Source: Candidatus Hadarchaeota archaeon
GTDB lineage: Archaea > Hadarchaeota > Hadarchaeia > Hadarchaeales > JAGGTB01
Assembly: GCA_964384105.1 (NCBI GenBank)
Contig: CAYLJV010000002.1
Location: 64,001-128,000 of the forward strand
DNA length: 64,000 bases
Direction of reading: 5' to 3'
Shown in pieces: positions 35,680-46,677 of this stretch (positions are counted from its first letter, which is position 1; every line of letters begins with the position of its first letter). A program made the translations under genes and the position numbers. The notes below the pieces were generated by a model that worked only from the letters and a program-made list of their open reading frames with translations, did no database searches and was not told the origin of the DNA.

Positions 35680-36789
35680 GTGAATCTCATGCGGAAAGAA
35701 GCATGGGTCAAAGCAGATTGGAATGAATCTTGGGACAAAAGAAAAAAATACATAACGTCCGCCCTAGAGGCGGGTGCCGATGGCCTAATAATCCCACCAG
35801 ACGACATAGAAAAGACCCGAAAATTAGGAAATATCAAAGTAATTTCAAGCTCAAAAGAAGCCGATGTACTCCTGATAAAGGCGTCGACCACCGATGAAGT
35901 AGATCAAGCTCTAGAAGAAATTGAAGAAAAAGAAAATGAAGTAGCCCTCTACATTGAGATTACTGGAAAAGAGCTTGAGAGAGCAGCTGTCGAAGCAGGA
36001 GATAGCGTTGACTTCCTTATCACCATAGCCAAAGATTGGAAAGTTATACCTCTAGAAAACATAATAGCAGAGCTGCAAGACTCAAAAGCTAAGATATTTG
36101 CCGGAGTTAAAGATTCTAAAGAAGCTAAAACGGCAATTGAAACACTGGAAGTAGGTGCAGACGGAGTAGTTTTGGACCCACGAGAGAAAGGTATCGAAGA
36201 AATCAGGAAAACCTGTGAAACCTTGGAGGACTTAGAGACCGAAAAATTCCAGTTAGCCCCAGCTAAAATCACAAAAGTAGAACCAAGTGGAATGGGAGAC
36301 AGAGTTTGCGTAGACACTACATCTCTCATGAAACTCGGAGAAGGAATGCTTGTCGGAAGCCAATCAAACGGCATGTTTCTCGTACATTCTGAAACACTCG
36401 AAAGCGAATACGTTTCGTCCAGACCATTCAGAGTAAACGCCGGCGCAGTCCATGCCTACATACAAGTGCCAGGTGGTAAAACAAAATATTTATCAGAATT
36501 AGAAAGTGGTGAGAAAGTCCTAATAGTAAACTCAGAAGGTGAATCCAAAGAAGCAACAGTAGGACGTGTAAAGATAGAAAGAAGGCCTATGCTTCTAATA
36601 GAAGCGGAAACCGAAGGAAGGAAAATAAGAACCTTACTTCAAAATGCGGAAACAATAAACCTGGTAGATAAGGAAGGCAATCCGATCTCAGTTTCAGAAT
36701 TAGAACCAGGAGACGAAGTTTTAACAAATCTTCAAAAAGGTGGACGTCACTTCGGAGCTCAAGTAGAAGAAACACTCGTTGAAAAGTAA
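35680..36789 (+). CDS. aroB': 3-dehydroquinate synthase II
   Basis: DWKVIPLEN, GDRVCVDT, RPFRVNAGAVHAY, LQNAETI, GRHFG. Confidence 0.95.
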   Translation: MNLMRKEAWVKADWNESWDKRKKYITSALEAGADGLIIPPDDIEKTRKLGNIKVISSSKEADVLLIKASTTDEVDQALEEIEEKENEVALYIEITGKELERAAVEAGDSVDFLITIAKDWKVIPLENIIAELQDSKAKIFAGVKDSKEAKTAIETLEVGADGVVLDPREKGIEEIRKTCETLEDLETEKFQLAPAKITKVEPSGMGDRVCVDTTSLMKLGEGMLVGSQSNGMFLVHSETLESEYVSSRPFRVNAGAVHAYIQVPGGKTKYLSELESGEKVLIVNSEGESKEATVGRVKIERRPMLLIEAETEGRKIRTLLQNAETINLVDKEGNPISVSELEPGDEVLTNLQKGGRHFGAQVEETLVEK

Positions 36790-36973
36790 TTCCAAAAACT
36801 CCTATTTTCTTTTATTTATCAAAGAAATCCAATCTGGGTTGAGAATTTTTGTTAAATTTAAATATTTGAGTTAAAAAGGTTAAAACGAACTCGCCCCTCT
36901 TAAAGTAAATTCTGTTTAATTAATAGGCGTTAAAATGATTATATCCAAAAACCAGAAATCAGGAGGGGGAAAT

Positions 36974-37684
36974 TTGATCGACTTTGGGAAACTCAAAATC
37001 CAGACGCCTGCCGTCTGTGCATCAGTGATCGGAACCGATTTAGACTCCATGAAAGATTCCTTAGAGAAAGCCATCAAAGCAGGAGCCGATATAGTAGAAT
37101 TAAGATTGGATAGATTAGAAAAAATCAGAGGATGGGAAGAATTACTCAAACACAATATACCAAAAATAGTGACTGTAAGATCAAAAAAAGAAGGTGGATT
37201 TTTTGAAGGAAAAGAAAAAGAGCGAATCGAAATCTTGATAGATGCAATAAACAGAGGAGTGGACTGCATCGATATCTCGCTCACGACACCCCAGATAGAA
37301 AAAAAGAATGTTTTAAAAAATGCAAAAAAGGCTGGTTCAAGTATTATACTATCCTTTCACGACTTTGAAAAAACGCCGACTTACGAAGAACTGAAGAAAA
37401 AAGCAGAAGAAATGAAAAAAAATGGGGCAGACTTCGCAAAAATAATAGGATTCGCCAGATCACCCGAAGATTCAATCGACATTCTAAAATTCCTTATCTT
37501 AGCCCGAAAAGAGGTCGAAATTCCTCTAATAGCCTTTGCAATGGGTGAAGAAGGAAAGTTCACAAGAGTCTCTGCACCTCTTTTAGGTTCACCTTTGACA
37601 TACTCTTCGGTCGGAGAAAAAGCCGCCCCGGGACAGATGGACGTTGAAGAAGTCATAGAAATACTAGATAAATTTAGAAAATAG
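36974..37684 (+). CDS. aroD: Type I 3-dehydroquinate dehydratase
   Basis: ELRLD, TVR...EGG, SFHDF..TP, AMGEEG..TR, APGQ. Confidence 0.95.
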   Translation: MIDFGKLKIQTPAVCASVIGTDLDSMKDSLEKAIKAGADIVELRLDRLEKIRGWEELLKHNIPKIVTVRSKKEGGFFEGKEKERIEILIDAINRGVDCIDISLTTPQIEKKNVLKNAKKAGSSIILSFHDFEKTPTYEELKKKAEEMKKNGADFAKIIGFARSPEDSIDILKFLILARKEVEIPLIAFAMGEEGKFTRVSAPLLGSPLTYSSVGEKAAPGQMDVEEVIEILDKFRK

Positions 37685-37738
37685 AATCAGTTACAAAGGA
37701 GTTTTTTACTAATAAGCATATTTTCAACTGGGAATAGG

Positions 37739-38593
37739 ATGATTAAGGGAAGTACAAAAGTTATAGCTTTATTAGGCGACCCAGTAGAACACAGCATATC
37801 TCCCGAAATGCAAAACGCTGCATTGGAAAAGAAAAAACTGGATTTTGTTTATGTGGCTTTTAAAGTACCTGAAAAATACGTCGAAGAATCGATTAAGGGA
37901 ATAAAATCCCTCGGTCTCAAAGGAGCGAACGTTACTATCCCTCACAAATCGGCCGTTATGAAATATCTTGACGAACTAGATGAAATCTCTCAGAAAATTG
38001 GAGCTGTAAACACAATAAATGAAGAAAATGGAAAGCTAAAAGGATACAATACGGACGGAAAAGGAGCTCTTAGAGCTCTAAGACGGAAAATCGGTGAAAT
38101 TCGCGGAAAAGAAGTGCTAATACTTGGAGCAGGCGGGGCTGCAAGGGCCATAGCCTTCACACTAATCGAATCAGGAGCCAATTTAAAAATCTCAAATCGT
38201 ACAGAAACTAAAGCCAATGATCTCGCGGCGGAATTAAAAGATAAGACTGGAAAATCTGTAACCCAAATACCCCAGAAAAGTAGAGAACTAGAAAATTCAA
38301 TAAAAGAATCAGATATCTTAATCAACTCAACATCAGTAGGGATGCATCCGAAAACCGACGAAACCATAGTAGACTCAGAAATGATGCATTCAAATCTTAC
38401 AGTTATGGATATCGTATACAACCCTCTAAAAACGCTATTGCTTCGAGAAGCAGATAAAGCCGGAGCAAAAACAATAAGCGGTATCGAAATGCTGATCCAG
38501 CAAGGTGCAGAATCCTTCGAAATCTGGACAGGTAAGAAAGCCCCAATCAACGTCATGCGAGATTATGCCATCAAAGCTATGGAGAGAAGATAA
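37739..38593 (+). CDS. aroE: Shikimate dehydrogenase
   Basis: GDPVEHSISP, NVTIPHK, GAVNT, NTDG, GAGGAA, DIVYNP. Confidence 0.96.
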   Translation: MIKGSTKVIALLGDPVEHSISPEMQNAALEKKKLDFVYVAFKVPEKYVEESIKGIKSLGLKGANVTIPHKSAVMKYLDELDEISQKIGAVNTINEENGKLKGYNTDGKGALRALRRKIGEIRGKEVLILGAGGAARAIAFTLIESGANLKISNRTETKANDLAAELKDKTGKSVTQIPQKSRELENSIKESDILINSTSVGMHPKTDETIVDSEMMHSNLTVMDIVYNPLKTLLLREADKAGAKTISGIEMLIQQGAESFEIWTGKKAPINVMRDYAIKAMERR

Positions 38594-38594
38594 A

Positions 38595-39455
38595 GTGAAG
38601 ATAGCAATCTTGGGGGCTGGATCTATGGGTAAGTGGTTTGCGAGATTTGCTAAAGAGAGAAGTTGGGAGATATCCATCTATGATATTAATAAGAAAAAAG
38701 GAAGAAAAATCTCAAAAGAACTAGGACTGGAATTTTCACCAAATAAAGAAGATGCTGTAGAAAATGCAGACGTAATTTTGATTTCTGTACCCATAACGGA
38801 AACTCCCAAACTGATAAAAGAGGCTTCAGAATCCGTAAAAGAAGGGTCTCTGCTAATAGACATTGCCTCGGTAAAGGAAAGAGCAGTAGAATCCATGAAA
38901 GAAGTGAAAAAAAGAATGGAATTAGTTTCAATACACCCTCTTTTCGGTCCAGGGGCCAAGAATCTGGATAATAAAAATATAATATCTATTCCTGTAGAAA
39001 AAGGAGAAAAATATCAACGATTAAAGAGCGAGTTTTCAGAACTTGGTGCAAAAATAGTAGAAATGGAAGCAGAAAAACATGACAAGCTTATGGCAGTTAT
39101 ACAATCTCTAACTCACTTCTCCCTCCTGACCCATTTTTCGGCATTCACCTCCATGGACTATAGTGACGAAGCAGAAAAATTTGAAACTCCCATATTCAAG
39201 AATTTATTCGATCTAACCAAAGCGTTCATGTACGAAAATCCTAAACTCTGTGCGGATATTCAGAGAGAAAACAGATACTCGGAGATAGCTAGGAATTCTA
39301 TAATAGAGGCTTCTAGAAACCTGAATGAGACGTTAGAATCAGGAGATATCAAAAAGATAGAAGAAATTTTCGACGAAGCCAGGGAAAAGATTGGCCCAGA
39401 AAAAATAGAGGCAGCTTATAAAAAAATTTACGCAAAGAAGGGAAATGAAAAATGA
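38595..39455 (+). CDS. tyrA: Prephenate dehydrogenase
   Basis: GAGSMG, DIASVK, HPLFGP, HDKLMA..Q.LTH; GTG start just after aroE. Confidence 0.93.
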   Translation: MKIAILGAGSMGKWFARFAKERSWEISIYDINKKKGRKISKELGLEFSPNKEDAVENADVILISVPITETPKLIKEASESVKEGSLLIDIASVKERAVESMKEVKKRMELVSIHPLFGPGAKNLDNKNIISIPVEKGEKYQRLKSEFSELGAKIVEMEAEKHDKLMAVIQSLTHFSLLTHFSAFTSMDYSDEAEKFETPIFKNLFDLTKAFMYENPKLCADIQRENRYSEIARNSIIEASRNLNETLESGDIKKIEEIFDEAREKIGPEKIEAAYKKIYAKKGNEK

Positions 39456-40273
39456 AAGTGGGAATATTAGGACCTCGTGGAACTTACAGCGAAATAGCAG
39501 CTAAAAATTACTTTAAAGAAGAAATAGAGATAGTGACATACTCCTTAATAACAGAAGTAGCAGAGAGTGTTGAAAAAGGAGAAATACCCGCAGGTGTAGT
39601 ACCAGTAGAAAGCCTCAGAGAAGGCTCCGTAGGGGAAACTTTAGATGCGCTAGCGTGGTTGGACGTGAAAATAAAGGCCGAAATAGTGATAGAAGTAACC
39701 CATAATCTATTGGGAACTAAAGGTTCTAAAATAGAAGACATAAGACAAGTTCTATCTCACCCCCAAGCACTGGCTCAATGTAGACAGTTCCTTCGAAAGA
39801 AACTACCCGAAGCTGAGTTAATAAGCGTAAAAAGTACAGCAAAAGCGGCGAAGCAAGTCAGCAAGGTAGAAAAGCCTTTCATGGCAGCCATAGGATCCCA
39901 AGATTTAGCAGATTTATACGATCTAGAAATTATCGAAGAAAACATTCAAATAGGCAAGAAAGATGAAACGAGATTTTTAATCTTGGGAAAAGAAGATAGC
40001 GAACCTACTGGAAAAGACAAAACTTCGATAGTTTTCTATACTCGAAAGGACGAACCAGGAATACTATATAAAATACTAAAAGAATTCGGAGAAAGAAAAA
40101 TAAACCTGACAAGAGTGGAATCAAGACCATCGAAAGAGGCTTTAGGAGATTATCTATTTTTTGTCGATTTTGAAGGCCACAGAAAGGATAATAAGATAAA
40201 ACAAGCACTTGAAAAAATCAAACCAAAGGTTGCAACTCTCAAGATTATAGGCTCCTATCCTAAGATATTTTGA
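39452..40273 (+). CDS. pheA: Prephenate dehydratase
   Basis: LGPRGTYS, SHPQALAQC, TRF, ACT domain with NLTRVESRP. Confidence 0.95.
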   Translation: MKVGILGPRGTYSEIAAKNYFKEEIEIVTYSLITEVAESVEKGEIPAGVVPVESLREGSVGETLDALAWLDVKIKAEIVIEVTHNLLGTKGSKIEDIRQVLSHPQALAQCRQFLRKKLPEAELISVKSTAKAAKQVSKVEKPFMAAIGSQDLADLYDLEIIEENIQIGKKDETRFLILGKEDSEPTGKDKTSIVFYTRKDEPGILYKILKEFGERKINLTRVESRPSKEALGDYLFFVDFEGHRKDNKIKQALEKIKPKVATLKIIGSYPKIF

Positions 40274-42335: not shown

Positions 42336-42478
42336 TGAACTCCCTCATTCTATTCATCGACTAGATTTAAGTTCTTTTCATTAAATAAGACCTTTCACAA
42401 ATATTAGAAAAAGAGCATCCCGACCATCTCTTATCCGTATTTATAAACAAAGCTGGAAAATGTAGTTTGGTTTTGAAA

Positions 42479-43240
42479 ATGAAGGAGATAGAGCCAGACC
42501 ACCCCCGAGCGGAGTCACTTAGAATAAGAAAGAAAATAGCTGAAGGTTTCAAAAAAGAACTAGTAACTCCCGAAGGGCTATCCGCCCATGGTCGAGGTGA
42601 AGCCTTCGACTATCTGCTTGGAGAGAAAACTACAGAATGGGCAAAAAAAGCAATAAGAGCAGGAGCCGCAAAAATACTCCTAGCAAAAGAGCCAGTTTTT
42701 TCTGTGAATGGAAATGTTGCTGCACTAGTTCCAAAAGAAATAGCAAAACTGGAGAAAATAATCGATGTCAAAATCGAAGTCAACCTTTTTCATAAATCCA
42801 AAAATCGAGCGAAGAGAATAGCAAAGCACCTAAAGAAAAATGGTGTTTCTAAAGTACTAGGTATAGATAAAGAACATTACACCTCGATTCCCGAAATAAA
42901 AAGTCATAGAAAAACAGTCGATAAGAGAGGTATAAAGAAAGCGGATTTGATTCTGGTACCACTAGAAGATGGAGACCGAAGCGAAGCACTGAAAAAAATA
43001 GGAAAAACGATAGTTACAGTAGACCTAAATCCACTATCTCGAACTGCCAAAGCTGCGGACGTTACAATCGTGGACAACGTAGTCAGGACACTACCAGCGC
43101 TGATCAAAGAAATAAATGAACTAAAAGACTACCCCCGAGAAAAACTTGAAGATATTTATGATAATTTTGATAATGAAAAAAATCTGAAATCTATGATCAA
43201 AAATATACTGAATCGATTAGAGGAACTCTCGGGAGTCTAG
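42479..43240 (+). CDS. pps: 4-phosphopantoate-beta-alanine ligase (phosphopantothenate synthetase)
   Basis: HPRAESL, AHGRGEAFDYLLGE, SVNGN, VPLEDGDR, DLNPLSRT. Confidence 0.95.
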   Translation: MKEIEPDHPRAESLRIRKKIAEGFKKELVTPEGLSAHGRGEAFDYLLGEKTTEWAKKAIRAGAAKILLAKEPVFSVNGNVAALVPKEIAKLEKIIDVKIEVNLFHKSKNRAKRIAKHLKKNGVSKVLGIDKEHYTSIPEIKSHRKTVDKRGIKKADLILVPLEDGDRSEALKKIGKTIVTVDLNPLSRTAKAADVTIVDNVVRTLPALIKEINELKDYPREKLEDIYDNFDNEKNLKSMIKNILNRLEELSGV

Positions 43241-45694
43241 TTAATCTTTTTTGGATTCTCTTATCTCTCTAAGAATTCTAGAAGTCGTCTCCTTTGGATT
43301 TGAAGAATTATAGATAGCACTACCTACAACACATATATCTGCTCCTGCCTTTGCTACTTCCTTAGCAACTCCCTCTTTGATACCACCAGCAACCGCTAGT
43401 TTAAAATCTCCAGCAATTTTCCTAGCTTCGGCCAGCAGCTTTTTCTTTTCATAAATCCCTCGTCCCTTAAGCTGCTCACTGATTCCCCTATGAATACAGA
43501 AAATAACCCGATCTTCATAGCCCTTCAACTCCTTAACAAGTTCACTCAACTTCTCTAAAGGATCAGAACAATCTATAAAATCTATCAGAATAGCTCCATC
43601 ACGCTGGACCGACTCACTCAGGGCTTCTGTTATTTTGTTTTTACCCCCAATTGCCAGAACAGCAGAAATATCTGCGCCAGGCCTAAAAGCAATCCTAGCC
43701 TCTAAACCACCAACATCCATCGTCTTGAGATCAGCCAAAATCAAAGCTTCTGGCGCAACTTCCCGTAAAGGAGGAATAAGATTATCCACTCCATGTCTTT
43801 TAATCGCCGGAGTACCCGCCTCGATTATACGTGCGCCTGCCTCATAAGACTGTTCAGCAATCTCACAGATTGTATCTATGTCAGCATCCATATCAAGTGC
43901 TACCTGAACTTGAGGATAGTTTATCCTATCTAGAGGACTAACGAACACATCTATTTTCTCAAACTTTTTGGGCTCACATAGAGGAACACCCTCTATCGGA
44001 ACACCATTTTCAGCCCACCCTCTCTCCTCATAATACTTTTTCAGCAAATCACCCAGATCAACCTCAAAACCCTCAGGTAACACATCTTGATCGTAATCAA
44101 ATCCCTCTCGAGCATTGAAAAGCCGTTCTAAAGTATAGATCCGAGAACCAATTTCTTTAAGATCCTCATTACTCCACTCAAATCCCGTCAGAGCAGAAAG
44201 AAGATTGGCGATATCGTCGAGTTCATAGTCAATCGTTGAAAAGAGAGCAATCCCATGAAATTTGCAAGCAATCATGCTGTCGTAAACCGCATAAGCATCC
44301 TGCATTTTTTTGACGAGTTCGGGTTTTCCTTCCTCCTTAGCCGGATCAACGAATTCCGGATTACTAATTATTTCGGGTAAGATCGTAAAGGCTCGCAAAT
44401 GGCAACCGCCTCTATTAGAAGTGGCATAAGCGAGGGCTATACCTTTAGCCCCTCTAGGATCATAAGCAGGTATTTCAAGTCCCTTGACATGAAAGGCTCT
44501 ATCTTCTTTTCCAAACTCCTCCGCAGCTTTAGCTACTCCCTTCGAAAAGACTGTCTTTCCTTTTCCAATATCTTTGATAAGCTTCTTAGCTTCCTTCAAG
44601 TCAGAAACTTCGCCTACTTCCCTTGCAAAACCAAGAATGTTCCCTACAGAAATGGTATCCAATCCAAATTCTTCACAAAGTTCTGACAGAGGCATGATCT
44701 CATTTTCGTAATCGTAGAAACCTGAATTTGGGCCGAGCATAGCAACCGATTCATACTCCGGCCCTTTCGTCTCCCCACTACCAATATTCACTATTCGTCC
44801 ACATCCAGTGGGGCAAGCGAAACACGCCTTCTGATCGGTTAGATACTCTTCATAAACCGTCTCCCCCGAAAAAGGATCTACCTGATCAAAATCCAACGGT
44901 TCACCCGAAAAATTATCCTTCGGAACCATCCCTGCAGCGGTTATCCTATGTACTAAAAGAGAAGTTCCAAATCTCGAGAGAGTCCCATCAGAACCGGTTA
45001 TAGGATTAGTTTTTACGGTCTGCTTAATCTTTTTTAGAACTTTGTTAAATTCTTCCTCGTGGGATATCTCCAAACTATTATTTCCCCTAACTACAATAGC
45101 CTTCAATTTCTTCGATCCCATCACCGCGCCCAAACCACCTCTACCAGCAGCGCGAGTCTCTGAAAGTAAACATGATACATTGACCAAATTTTCCCCAGCA
45201 GGGCCTATCTCAACCACTCTAGAATTCTTATAAGAATCTCTCAAACGCTTCTCAACATCCGAGGTTTTCTTACCCCAAAGCTCCGAAGCATCCTTCAAAG
45301 AAACATCTCCATCGTCGATAAGTAAATACATCGGGCCCTCCGATTTCCCTTCTATAATAACTCCATCAAAGCCTGCCTTCTTTAGGTACGCTCCAAAAGA
45401 CCCACCCATAGAGCAGTCAAAAATCGTTCCAGTTAGAGGAGACTTAGAACATATAGATATCCTACCAGCACCAGGAAAAGTGGTTCCAGTGAGAGGACCG
45501 GTCATGAAAATTAATTTATTTTCTTCAGAAAGAGGATCCACATTAGCCTCTAGTTCATCGTAAAGAACACTACATCCGTATCCTCTACCACCCAGATAGT
45601 TGTATGCTCTCTTTTCATCCAAATTTTCGACTTCAATTTTCTTATCAGCAAGATTAACTCTCAGAACCTTACCTACATATCCACCTAGTTTCAT
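43241..45694 (-). CDS. Aldehyde:ferredoxin oxidoreductase fused to C-terminal 3-hexulose-6-phosphate synthase domain
   Basis: AOR motifs (SPLTG, AAGRGGLGAVMGSK, CFACPTGC, PEYE, DTIS, AYDPR, RGGCH, C) then HPS motifs (QVALD, IEAGTP, ADLKTMD, HRG, AVAGGI, VVGSAI) in one ORF. Confidence 0.9.
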   Translation of the reverse strand: MKLGGYVGKVLRVNLADKKIEVENLDEKRAYNYLGGRGYGCSVLYDELEANVDPLSEENKLIFMTGPLTGTTFPGAGRISICSKSPLTGTIFDCSMGGSFGAYLKKAGFDGVIIEGKSEGPMYLLIDDGDVSLKDASELWGKKTSDVEKRLRDSYKNSRVVEIGPAGENLVNVSCLLSETRAAGRGGLGAVMGSKKLKAIVVRGNNSLEISHEEEFNKVLKKIKQTVKTNPITGSDGTLSRFGTSLLVHRITAAGMVPKDNFSGEPLDFDQVDPFSGETVYEEYLTDQKACFACPTGCGRIVNIGSGETKGPEYESVAMLGPNSGFYDYENEIMPLSELCEEFGLDTISVGNILGFAREVGEVSDLKEAKKLIKDIGKGKTVFSKGVAKAAEEFGKEDRAFHVKGLEIPAYDPRGAKGIALAYATSNRGGCHLRAFTILPEIISNPEFVDPAKEEGKPELVKKMQDAYAVYDSMIACKFHGIALFSTIDYELDDIANLLSALTGFEWSNEDLKEIGSRIYTLERLFNAREGFDYDQDVLPEGFEVDLGDLLKKYYEERGWAENGVPIEGVPLCEPKKFEKIDVFVSPLDRINYPQVQVALDMDADIDTICEIAEQSYEAGARIIEAGTPAIKRHGVDNLIPPLREVAPEALILADLKTMDVGGLEARIAFRPGADISAVLAIGGKNKITEALSESVQRDGAILIDFIDCSDPLEKLSELVKELKGYEDRVIFCIHRGISEQLKGRGIYEKKKLLAEARKIAGDFKLAVAGGIKEGVAKEVAKAGADICVVGSAIYNSSNPKETTSRILREIRESKKD

Positions 45695-45828
45695 TTGAAG
45701 ACCATCTCTATTGATAAAATAACCCAATAAATAATTATTATTCTACTAATAAACTCTGAGTCTCTATATTGGCAATACTTTAAGAGCTGAAAAGAGTTGA
45801 GTAAAAAACAGACAAAAGGTTACCCAAA

Positions 45829-46677
45829 ATGAATAAAGATAAGATAACAGTACAAAATTTCCAAAAAATGAAGGAAAATAAAGAAAAAATCTCAATGTTA
45901 ACTGCTTACGATTATCCAACAGCAAAGTTAATCGAAGAATCAAATATAGAAGCAGTTTTGGTAGGCGATTCACTGGGAAATATAATTCTGGGCTATAAAA
46001 ACACCCTTCCTGTAACTCTAGAGGACATATTGCATCACACAAAAGCCGTAGCAAGAGGGATAGACCATTCCATGCTAATCGCAGATATGCCTTTTAACTC
46101 GTACCAAAGCAGTACAGAAGAGGCTATAAAAAACGCTGGTAAACTCATAAAGGAGGGAAATGCCGAAGCAATCAAGATAGAAGGAGGAAAAGAATCCCTT
46201 AAACAGATAAAAGGAATTTTAGAAACCGGCATCCCTGTAATGGGACATTTAGGCTTAACACCCCAAAAAATACTCCAGTTTGGGGAATACAAAGTTCGAG
46301 GAAAAACAGGAAAAGAAGCCTATAGGATTTTTGAAGAAGCCAAAATGCTGGAGGAAGCTGGTGTGTTCAGCCTAGTTTTAGAAGCTATACCCTGGGAACT
46401 AGGAGAAATAATAACCAAAAACCTTGAAATTCCTACTATTGGAATCGGTGCAGGTCCACACTGTGACGGTCAAATATTGGTTCTTCATGACATTTTAGGA
46501 CTTAGCAGTTTTTCTCCAAAATTTGCCAAAAAATACGCAGATTTAAATTCATCAATAAAGAAAGCTGTTAAAAATTTCTCAGAAGAAGTAAAAGATAAAA
46601 AATTCCCAGATTCAAAACACACATACAGTATGAAAGAAGAAGAATTCAAGAAATTTAAAGAATTGATCAAAAAATAG
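45829..46677 (+). CDS. panB: Ketopantoate hydroxymethyltransferase
   Basis: LTAYD, LVGDSLG, ADMPF, KIEGG, GHLGLTPQ, IGIGAG..CDGQILV. Confidence 0.97.
   Translation: MNKDKITVQNFQKMKENKEKISMLTAYDYPTAKLIEESNIEAVLVGDSLGNIILGYKNTLPVTLEDILHHTKAVARGIDHSMLIADMPFNSYQSSTEEAIKNAGKLIKEGNAEAIKIEGGKESLKQIKGILETGIPVMGHLGLTPQKILQFGEYKVRGKTGKEAYRIFEEAKMLEEAGVFSLVLEAIPWELGEIITKNLEIPTIGIGAGPHCDGQILVLHDILGLSSFSPKFAKKYADLNSSIKKAVKNFSEEVKDKKFPDSKHTYSMKEEEFKKFKELIKK

Follow-up and report, generated by a model that had tools for sequence, protein, structure and literature searches.

A conserved archaeal fusion of aldehyde:ferredoxin oxidoreductase to 3-hexulose-6-phosphate synthase with a probable role in the oxidation of formaldehyde from the reverse ribulose monophosphate pathway

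Many archaea make pentoses by running the ribulose monophosphate (RuMP) pathway in reverse, with one formaldehyde released per pentose. To our knowledge, it is not settled how organisms that lack Fae and tetrahydromethanopterin (H4MPT) handle this formaldehyde. Here we describe a gene on the reverse strand, at positions 43241..45694, of a 64,000-nucleotide stretch of DNA from a Candidatus Hadarchaeota archaeon (contig CAYLJV010000002.1, positions 64,001 to 128,000; hereafter, the window). The gene joins, in one reading frame, a predicted aldehyde:ferredoxin oxidoreductase (AOR) of the tungsten- or molybdenum-pterin, [4Fe-4S] type to a predicted Mg-dependent 3-hexulose-6-phosphate synthase (henceforth HPS). 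The fusion is real, conserved and widespread in archaea. Its best explanation, which we regard as probable, is that of a reverse-RuMP HPS with a built-in formaldehyde-oxidizing AOR module. That is, the fusion most likely makes ribulose-5-phosphate via the reverse RuMP route, and its AOR module most likely oxidizes the released formaldehyde to formate. If so, the conserved fusion would constitute a third, redox-coupled solution to the formaldehyde of the reverse RuMP pathway, with consequences for genome annotation.

Two intact modules in one reading frame

The gene encodes a protein of 817 residues, designated P0001, from an ATG at 45694 to a stop codon at 43241-43243. The single frame is open over 43241..45727 on the reverse strand, which gives 828 residues if counted from an in-frame TTG at 45727, located 11 codons upstream of the ATG (stretch 45695-45727). 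Homologues are 815-822 residues long and share the N-terminal consensus GGYxGKILRV; because these lengths and N-termini agree with the ATG, it is preferred over the TTG. From the N-terminus, the protein consists of an AFOR_N domain (Pfam PF02730; residues 8-204, 45083..45673), the AFOR_C domains 2 and 3 (PF01314; residues 218-567, 43994..45043), a linker between the Pfam domain limits (residues 568-593, 43916..43993) and an HPS-type (beta/alpha)8 barrel (residues 594-817, 43244..43915), all on the reverse strand. Both AFOR families are matched at full length, with 274 bits (cut-off 29.8) over profile positions 1-198 of 199 for AFOR_N, and 326 bits (cut-off 27) over profile positions 1-376 of 385 for AFOR_C. 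The barrel is matched by the NCBIfam model TIGR03128 with 134.4 bits and, over residues 594-806, by the Pfam family OMPdecase/HUMPS (PF00215) with 80.7 bits. The linker leads from the C-terminus of the AOR part (…ERGWAENGVP) into the first barrel strand. It is partly conserved, with the consensus L.L.PL.R…P.LQVALD, among 24 aligned fusions that belong to several phyla and are 43-70% identical to P0001. The initial annotation of this DNA, made from the letters alone, had described one uninterrupted open reading frame joining a complete AOR to an intact-looking HPS barrel at about 43241-43920; the frame, Pfam and NCBIfam all confirm this description, and the position of the barrel agrees.

Every motif named in that annotation was found in place in P0001. 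The AOR module contains CFACPTGC (291-298), PEYE (312-315), GLDTIS (345-349, with DTIS at 346-349), AYDPRG (410-415, with YDPR at 411-414), GGCH (429-432) and IACK (475-478), the last of which contains the distal cysteine. The AFOR_C part thus provides the four [4Fe-4S] cysteines, C291, C294, C298 and C477, in the expected arrangement of CxxCxxxC plus a distal cysteine. The roles of the [4Fe-4S], pterin and catalytic residues of this module we take to be those assigned in the literature on the Pyrococcus furiosus AOR. The HPS module includes QVALD (597-601), EAGTP (625-629), DLKTMD (655-660) and HRG (735-737), and the key residues of its barrel are D601, E625, D655, K657, D660, D705, H735, I738 and A769-G771. 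All of the latter are invariant in the 24 fusions, as are C291, C294, C298, C477, E313, E315, D346 and H432 of the AOR module. Both modules are therefore intact in their catalytic and cofactor residues, as had been proposed.

Over its whole length, the AOR half can be aligned to AORs of known structure, namely that of P. furiosus (Protein Data Bank (PDB) entry 1aor, 423 bits) and two bacterial enzymes (9mqx, 414 bits; 9g7j, 396 bits). The C-terminal domain is best described as an HPS. Among the NCBIfam models, TIGR03128 scores 134.4 bits versus 50 for KGPDC and 39 for OMPDC, and the models of HPS-PHI, Fae-HPS and HPS-RraA score 126-139 bits with their HPS halves. In addition, this half can be aligned at full length to two solved enzymes, HPS-PHI 9lj9 (99.9 bits) and the M. 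gastri HPS 3ajx (84.4 bits); KGPDC scores at most 34 bits. All residues for metal binding and catalysis in the HPS/KGPDC group are present, and the three positions at which KGPDC differs are of the HPS type. D705, I738 and A769 are the same as in 9lj9 and 3ajx, and also as in the KGPDC mutant E112D/R139V/T169A, whose substitutions were reportedly made to raise HPS activity. Scores and residues alike thus speak against a grouping with OMPDC or KGPDC, a possibility that the initial annotation had raised.

An AlphaFold2 model of the monomer, created from the 24-row alignment, has a mean pLDDT of 91.8 and a pTM of 0.89; the relative placement of the two modules is therefore confident. Only the loop 738-748 falls below a pLDDT of 50, and the linker region (residues 561-590) lies at 77-84. 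In a Foldseek search, the TM-scores (by target) are 0.86-0.89 for the AOR half against AORs (AOR 0.87, FOR 0.86) and 0.89-0.91 for the HPS half against the HPS structures 3f4w and 3ajx, and no solved chain in this search covers both halves. A complex prediction with the AOR part (1-572) and the HPS part (588-817) as separate chains, each given the 24-row alignment, produced scores of 0.09 and 0.02 (mark, 0.32) and is neutral on docking. The OMPDC suprafamily forms obligate dimers and the P. furiosus AOR is dimeric; by analogy, the fusion protein is probably at least dimeric.

Distribution and evolution of the fusion

Among the best 120 of 8000 scored candidate relatives of P0001, 117 carry PF02730, PF01314 and PF00215 in a single protein of about 800-860 residues. 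These proteins come from independent assemblies, with source names that include Hadarchaeota, Hodarchaeales, Bathyarchaeia, Nezhaarchaeales, Methanomethylicaceae and 'Thaumarchaeota'. When one genome per species was scanned, 455 stretches were confirmed, and the best 80 loci were kept. A fusion gene of more than 650 residues is present in 74 of these loci, which together with the window makes 75 fusion loci; the complete chromosomes of two Methanosuratincola species are among them. The three-domain architecture, which the initial annotation had suggested mapping by taxonomy, is thus found in many archaeal phyla: its carriers are Hadarchaeota, Bathyarchaeia, Methanomethylicia (with the cultured Methanosuratincola), Nezhaarchaeota, several Asgard groups, Hydrothermarchaeota and the metagenome-assembled genome (MAG) B48_G17.

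The junction between the modules (about 43916-43993) is spanned by a 354-base contig from run X2, a different sample, which matches 43742-44095 with no differences; this run belongs to the same study as the probable source of the window, and is weak support on its own. Most of the gene is covered by X2 and by run X4, which comes from another study (90-99% alike); only the X2 contig bridges the junction, and stretches left uncovered carry no weight. Contigs from the RNA libraries X8 and X9 (95-99% alike) match parts of the AOR half only, at 44375-44572 and 45347-45684. We do not count them as evidence of expression, since DNA can be present in libraries of this type and a relative may be the source of the contigs. 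Taken together, the shared three-domain architecture of the relatives and the bridging contig refute an assembly artefact at the junction, the first objection that the initial annotation had foreseen.

We found no published description of the fusion in the full-text literature searched, which leaves supplementary tables and most subscription journals outside its scope; the initial annotation, likewise, knew of no characterization. The architecture is therefore apparently undescribed. In the portions of the text available, PMC11291895 and PMC6946796 handle HPS-PHI, Fae-HPS and AORs as separate, and PMC10321748 and PMC4725937 do not mention the fusion. The text of PMC8065059 places MAG B48_G17 among the Brockarchaeota, and ascribes HPS, PHI and AFOR to Brockarchaeota MAGs, this one included, as functions distinct from one another. 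At the locus of this MAG among our 75 (L081), the HPS domain (216.9 bits) lies inside an 831-residue frame that also contains the AOR part. Published reconstructions may therefore be counting one fused gene as two enzymes.

Relatives of the AOR half were examined after clustering at 50%. There are 11475 of them, and the fusions collapse to few top representatives, P0063 (826 residues), P0115 (832 residues) and P0124 (992 residues). Ordinary AORs, of about 600 residues, rank after the fusions, at no more than 46% identity. In a phylogenetic tree of 178 sequences and 595 columns (FastTree, LG+gamma, midpoint root; four representatives of unusual length omitted), the fused AOR domains form two clades with a support of 1.0 each. 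The node common to both has a support of 0.76, and 12 long-branch unfused representatives also fall under it. The genome that contains the window (G000) encodes eight other AOR paralogues, all of them 2.6-3.2 substitutions per site away. As judged from this tree, the fused AOR is a dedicated lineage rather than a general-purpose copy. In the corresponding tree of HPS domains, the clade of the window's protein is monophyletic (support 0.90) and separate from canonical HPS. Canonical and RraA-fused HPS are the partners of the second fused clade (support 0.98), whose HPS domain passes the 200-bit cut-off of TIGR03128 in 17 of 29 genomes. Because the AOR tree joins the two fused clades at 0.76 and the HPS tree puts the second with canonical HPS, there may have been one fusion event or two.

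Two variants of the architecture were observed. P0122 (562 residues), an apparently unfused top match, is actually an AOR that is followed by an HPS in the same frame, with a single TAG between them. This TAG lies inside the conserved RGW…G.P tail and is directly followed by TTG (…RGWV-stop-LDGIP…; L101, 6687-6692). It is also found in L102 and L103, the three being metagenome contigs that are 95-99% alike. This arrangement could represent a true split with re-initiation, read-through, or recoding of TAG. In the other variant, P0124 (G094:C64:6375-7526, locus L093), two HPS-type stretches of 111.8 and 184.3 bits follow the AOR in one 994-residue frame.

Gene content, proposed mechanism and alternative explanations

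The assembly of G000 has 1.62 Mb in 12 contigs and is 90.2% complete, and the absences reported here for this genome are to be read at that completeness. The fusion is its sole credible HPS gene, the next match having 41.8 bits. PHI is encoded by a standalone gene (C1:546777-547337; TIGR03127, 204 bits, cut-off 160), and RpiA and SHMT were also found. Fae has no match, and Mch, Transketolase_N and 6PGD were not found. The profile searches therefore agree with the combination that the initial annotation had proposed looking for, i.e., phi as a gene of its own and neither fae nor a further hps. With RpiA present and neither transketolase nor 6PGD detected, PHI, the fusion and RpiA make up the only pentose route detected in this genome. 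For this route to make pentoses, the HPS module must work in the direction of cleavage, releasing formaldehyde.

In the mechanism that we propose, PHI would turn fructose-6-phosphate into hexulose-6-phosphate, which the HPS module would split into ribulose-5-phosphate and formaldehyde; RpiA would then convert ribulose-5-phosphate to ribose-5-phosphate. The fused AOR module would oxidize the formaldehyde to formate and pass two electrons to ferredoxin, possibly with direct transfer of formaldehyde between the two sites. This oxidation would remove a toxic product and pull the cleavage forward. Cleavage is the unfavourable direction for HPS, and ferredoxin-linked oxidation of aldehydes by AOR is favourable; the fusion would thus serve both to detoxify and to pull the reaction. 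The AOR module would play the part that Fae has in Fae-HPS, with no need for H4MPT. A possible consumer of the formate is PurP, a formate-dependent purine enzyme whose family (PF06973) is encoded twice in G000, by two tandem genes at C1:87756-89550 on the reverse strand (199.8 and 132.5 bits).

A survey of 66 genomes of the same phylum gives further indications. AOR-HPS occurs in 21 of them (20 with frames of at least 600 residues, plus G029, where the gene is cut by the start of a contig), canonical stand-alone HPS above the cut-off in 11, Fae-HPS in 7, and an HPS-only form of the fusion type in 3 (G044, G028 and G052). Partial HPS matches in G006 and G046 are undecided as to the form that they represent, and four matches of about 60 bits are probably of another family. 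None of the 21 fusion genomes has a canonical HPS above the cut-off. Standalone PHI is present in 19 of them, the other two being 70% and 86% complete, versus 4 of the 24 genomes of the phylum without any HPS match. Fae was found in a single fusion genome, G058, which also has Fae-HPS, and Mch in 0 of the 21, versus 6 of the 7 Fae-HPS genomes. In the genus of the window itself, Mch is absent from the two genomes with AOR-HPS (G000 and G049) and accompanies Fae-HPS in five other species. This pattern is suggestive, in that it is the one expected if the AOR module serves organisms without H4MPT as Fae serves others. In other phyla, 30 fusion-bearing genomes were reached through the loci. The HPS match lies in a frame of at least 731 residues in 29 of these, the thirtieth locus being cut by the end of a contig; an unfused PHI gene was found in 24, and Fae in 4.

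Several observations weigh against a formaldehyde-oxidizing, pentose-forming fusion. First, the three AORs mentioned above outscore FOR (1b25, 300 bits) as well as WOR5 (172 bits) as matches to the AOR module, in a comparison of PDB bit scores. The module is 39% identical to 1aor and 34% to 1b25. On these sequence criteria it is AOR-like rather than FOR-like, and has no specific pointer to formaldehyde. Thus, of the interpretation given in the initial annotation, the genuine reading frame, the HPS type, the presence of phi without fae or another hps and the reverse-RuMP role, the only pentose route detected, are supported, but the expectation of an AOR of the FOR type is not, given the 423 bits to 1aor versus 300 to 1b25. 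Since the module is closer to 1aor than to FOR, it is from the fusion partner, and not from subfamily membership, that we infer specificity for formaldehyde. Second, the 134.4 bits of the HPS module do not reach the 200-bit equivalog cut-off of TIGR03128. Third, G000, at 90% completeness, has no FDH-alpha above the cut-off (best 77.5 bits versus 666), and neither FocA nor PurT was found; of the formate sinks sought, PurP alone was detected. Fourth, no phi, ferredoxin, formate or pentose gene adjoins the fusion across the 75 loci, i.e., there is no conserved operon.

Other observations of this kind come from the genome comparisons. Related genomes are not independent, and the co-occurrence counts therefore overstate the support. 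In the other phyla, Mch coexists with the fusion in 9 of the 30 genomes, and a second HPS of 433-462 residues is present in 9 of the 30; in G078, where it was checked, the latter is an HPS-RraA-like fusion (NF005442, 655 bits versus a cut-off of 593). The fusion is therefore not simply a substitute for the H4MPT route. Moreover, the HPS of G044, G028 and G052 is 58-70% identical to the fusion HPS and, in the HPS tree, falls within the fused clade at three different points. The gene of G028 encodes 233 residues, 70% identical to residues 592-816 of P0001, and lies between panB and phosphopantothenate synthetase, as in the window; that of G044 is beside panB. No fusion-type AOR was found elsewhere in these three genomes: the best match reaches 46% identity in G028 and 36% identity in G052, and for G044 there is no match to the window's AOR module at E<=1e-40. 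In the same search, the fused gene is recovered from both control genomes, with 65% identity for G027 and 58% for G043. As reconstructed from these trees and searches, the AOR module was lost at least three times while HPS was kept, and is thus dispensable. As an observation in its own right, G044, which is 95% complete in 9 contigs, combines the HPS-only gene with PHI and with no AOR-family match at that threshold, no Fae and no Mch.

Losses of this kind would be expected if the two modules were metabolically uncoupled, the AOR acting on other aldehydes, e.g., from amino-acid breakdown, or merely stabilizing the protein, and the fusion reflecting co-expression or chance. The similarity to broad-specificity AORs and the absence of a conserved pathway operon also suit this explanation, which we nevertheless consider rather unlikely. 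The fusion has been kept across many phyla with both active sites invariant, and the fused AORs form a lineage of their own, apart from the eight general paralogues of G000. Even in the three TAG-split contigs, both parts are still end to end in the same frame. Finally, formaldehyde is the only aldehyde of the HPS reaction.

It is also conceivable, though in our view unlikely, that the fusion works as a reversible gate through which one-carbon units pass between formate and sugar phosphates. In its pentose mode, carbon 1 of hexose would become formate as a dedicated supply for PurP in archaea without the tetrahydromethanopterin one-carbon route, and one enzyme would deliver both the ribose and the one-carbon units of nucleotides. 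In its reverse mode, in lineages that regenerate ribulose-5-phosphate, formate would be converted with ferredoxin as the driving force to bound formaldehyde and on to hexulose-6-phosphate. If the enzyme is reversible, it would offer a natural template for the formate-to-formaldehyde assimilation modules that are sought in synthetic one-carbon metabolism.

In an assimilatory direction alone, the AOR module would use reduced ferredoxin to make formaldehyde from formate, HPS would immediately condense this formaldehyde with ribulose-5-phosphate, and hexose phosphate would thereby receive carbon from formate. Reduction of acids is a known activity of AOR-family enzymes, and HPS favours condensation. 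A fusion would, in addition, hold free formaldehyde very low, as such coupling needs, and the other HPS forms in 9 of the 30 genomes of other phyla leave room for a second role. A route from formate via formaldehyde to RuMP has also been proposed, with other enzymes, for a crenarchaeon in PMC7143981. We consider this direction distinctly improbable, however. With neither Transketolase_N nor 6PGD found, G000 has no detected way to regenerate or otherwise obtain ribulose-5-phosphate; its only HPS must therefore cleave to make pentoses. The lack of a detected FocA-type formate transporter also argues against this direction.

There is very little likelihood that the barrel is another member of the OMPDC suprafamily, i.e., a KGPDC-like decarboxylase or a different aldolase. 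The score below the TIGR03128 cut-off and the separation of the window protein's clade from canonical HPS would allow for it. Against this, HPS models far outscore those of KGPDC and OMPDC, the metal-binding and catalytic residues and the three KGPDC-distinguishing positions are of the HPS type, and the same domain passes the cut-off in most genomes of the sister fused clade, as noted above. The barrel is, moreover, the sole HPS candidate in a genome with PHI, RpiA and no other detected pentose route. Lastly, an artefact of assembly or gene calling that joined two neighbouring genes is next to inconceivable: nothing was found in its support, the nearest being the in-frame TAG at the junction in some relatives, and it is contradicted by the 117 three-domain proteins, by two complete chromosomes and by the X2 contig that crosses the junction without a difference.

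The genes that flank the fusion are both on the forward strand. An archaeal phosphopantothenate synthetase (42467..43240; NF010324, 348 bits) is convergent with the fusion and abuts its stop codon, and panB, encoding ketopantoate hydroxymethyltransferase (45829..46677; TIGR00222, 333 bits), is divergent from it. panB adjoins the fusion in 12 of the 75 loci and is also found at the HPS-only loci L095 and L096; phosphopantothenate synthetase is at the same position in L096 and L098. The order panB, (AOR-)HPS, phosphopantothenate synthetase, seen at 42467-46677 in the window, is thus kept in the phylum with or without the AOR part (L095, L096, L098). The two coenzyme-A genes flanking an RuMP gene are a case of lineage synteny, outside the proposed mechanism. 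A one-carbon link between the fusion and panB may exist. That HPS-derived formaldehyde feeds ketopantoate synthesis was considered and rejected as the principal explanation, the adjacency being confined to the phylum and SHMT, which makes the methylene-pterin donor, being present. Recurrent neighbours across the 75 loci are lineage-specific: a ThiS/MoaD-like gene (26 loci), fumarase subunits (19 and 13 loci) and a methyltransferase (19 loci), in addition to panB. The ThiS/MoaD-like gene is small (about 93 residues), directly adjoins the fusion, mostly upstream, and fits a pterin-cofactor enzyme; it was not seen beside the window's copy. Elsewhere in the window, an aromatic amino-acid cluster on the forward strand (35680-40273) comprises DHQS-II, type I dehydroquinase, shikimate dehydrogenase, prephenate dehydrogenase and prephenate dehydratase. 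The DHQS-II route to aromatic amino acids is independent of erythrose-4-phosphate, and the cluster is in keeping with the missing transketolase.

Comparison with known enzymes and fusions

Each module has well-known stand-alone counterparts. The tungstopterin enzymes AOR (1aor) and FOR (1b25) of P. furiosus, of about 605-619 residues, match the N-terminal 570 residues of the fusion over their full length, with the same cysteine ligands and pterin motifs; in the fusion, their last approximately 13 residues are replaced by the linker and the HPS barrel. Stand-alone HPS, such as that of M. gastri (3ajx; TIGR03128), has the same fold, metal ligands and catalytic residues as the HPS module, which differs in being fused and divergent, at 134 bits.

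Among the HPS fusions, the initial annotation had named Fae-HPS and HPS-PHI. Both are confirmed as comparators, but the list was incomplete, as NCBIfam also holds an HPS-RraA-like fusion (NF005442). The latter, which was found alongside AOR-HPS in some genomes (checked in G078), has a C-terminal RraA/aldolase-like partner and, unlike AOR-HPS, no redox module. HPS-PHI of Thermococcales (NF041755) has the same catalytic residues and the same presumed reverse-RuMP role, and its structure 9lj9 is the best solved match of the C-terminal module. It joins two consecutive steps of the pathway, however, whereas in AOR-HPS the PHI is separate and the fused partner would act on the by-product.

The closest parallel is Fae-HPS (NF009833), found in methanogens and their relatives. 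It combines HPS with a formaldehyde-consuming enzyme, as AOR-HPS would, an arrangement suited to pentose synthesis by the reverse RuMP pathway, and the two fusions largely replace each other in the phylum, occurring together only in G058 (1 of 21). They are nevertheless distinct proteins: P0001 matches only the HPS half of NF009833 (positions 171-381) and has no Fae domain, and the HPS domains of the two belong to different clades of the HPS tree. The partners differ as well. Fae is a non-redox enzyme that needs tetrahydromethanopterin and yields methylene-H4MPT, whereas the partner in AOR-HPS is a predicted pterin/[4Fe-4S] oxidoreductase whose products would be formate and reduced ferredoxin. 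AOR-HPS is thus best read as a third type of formaldehyde-handling HPS fusion.

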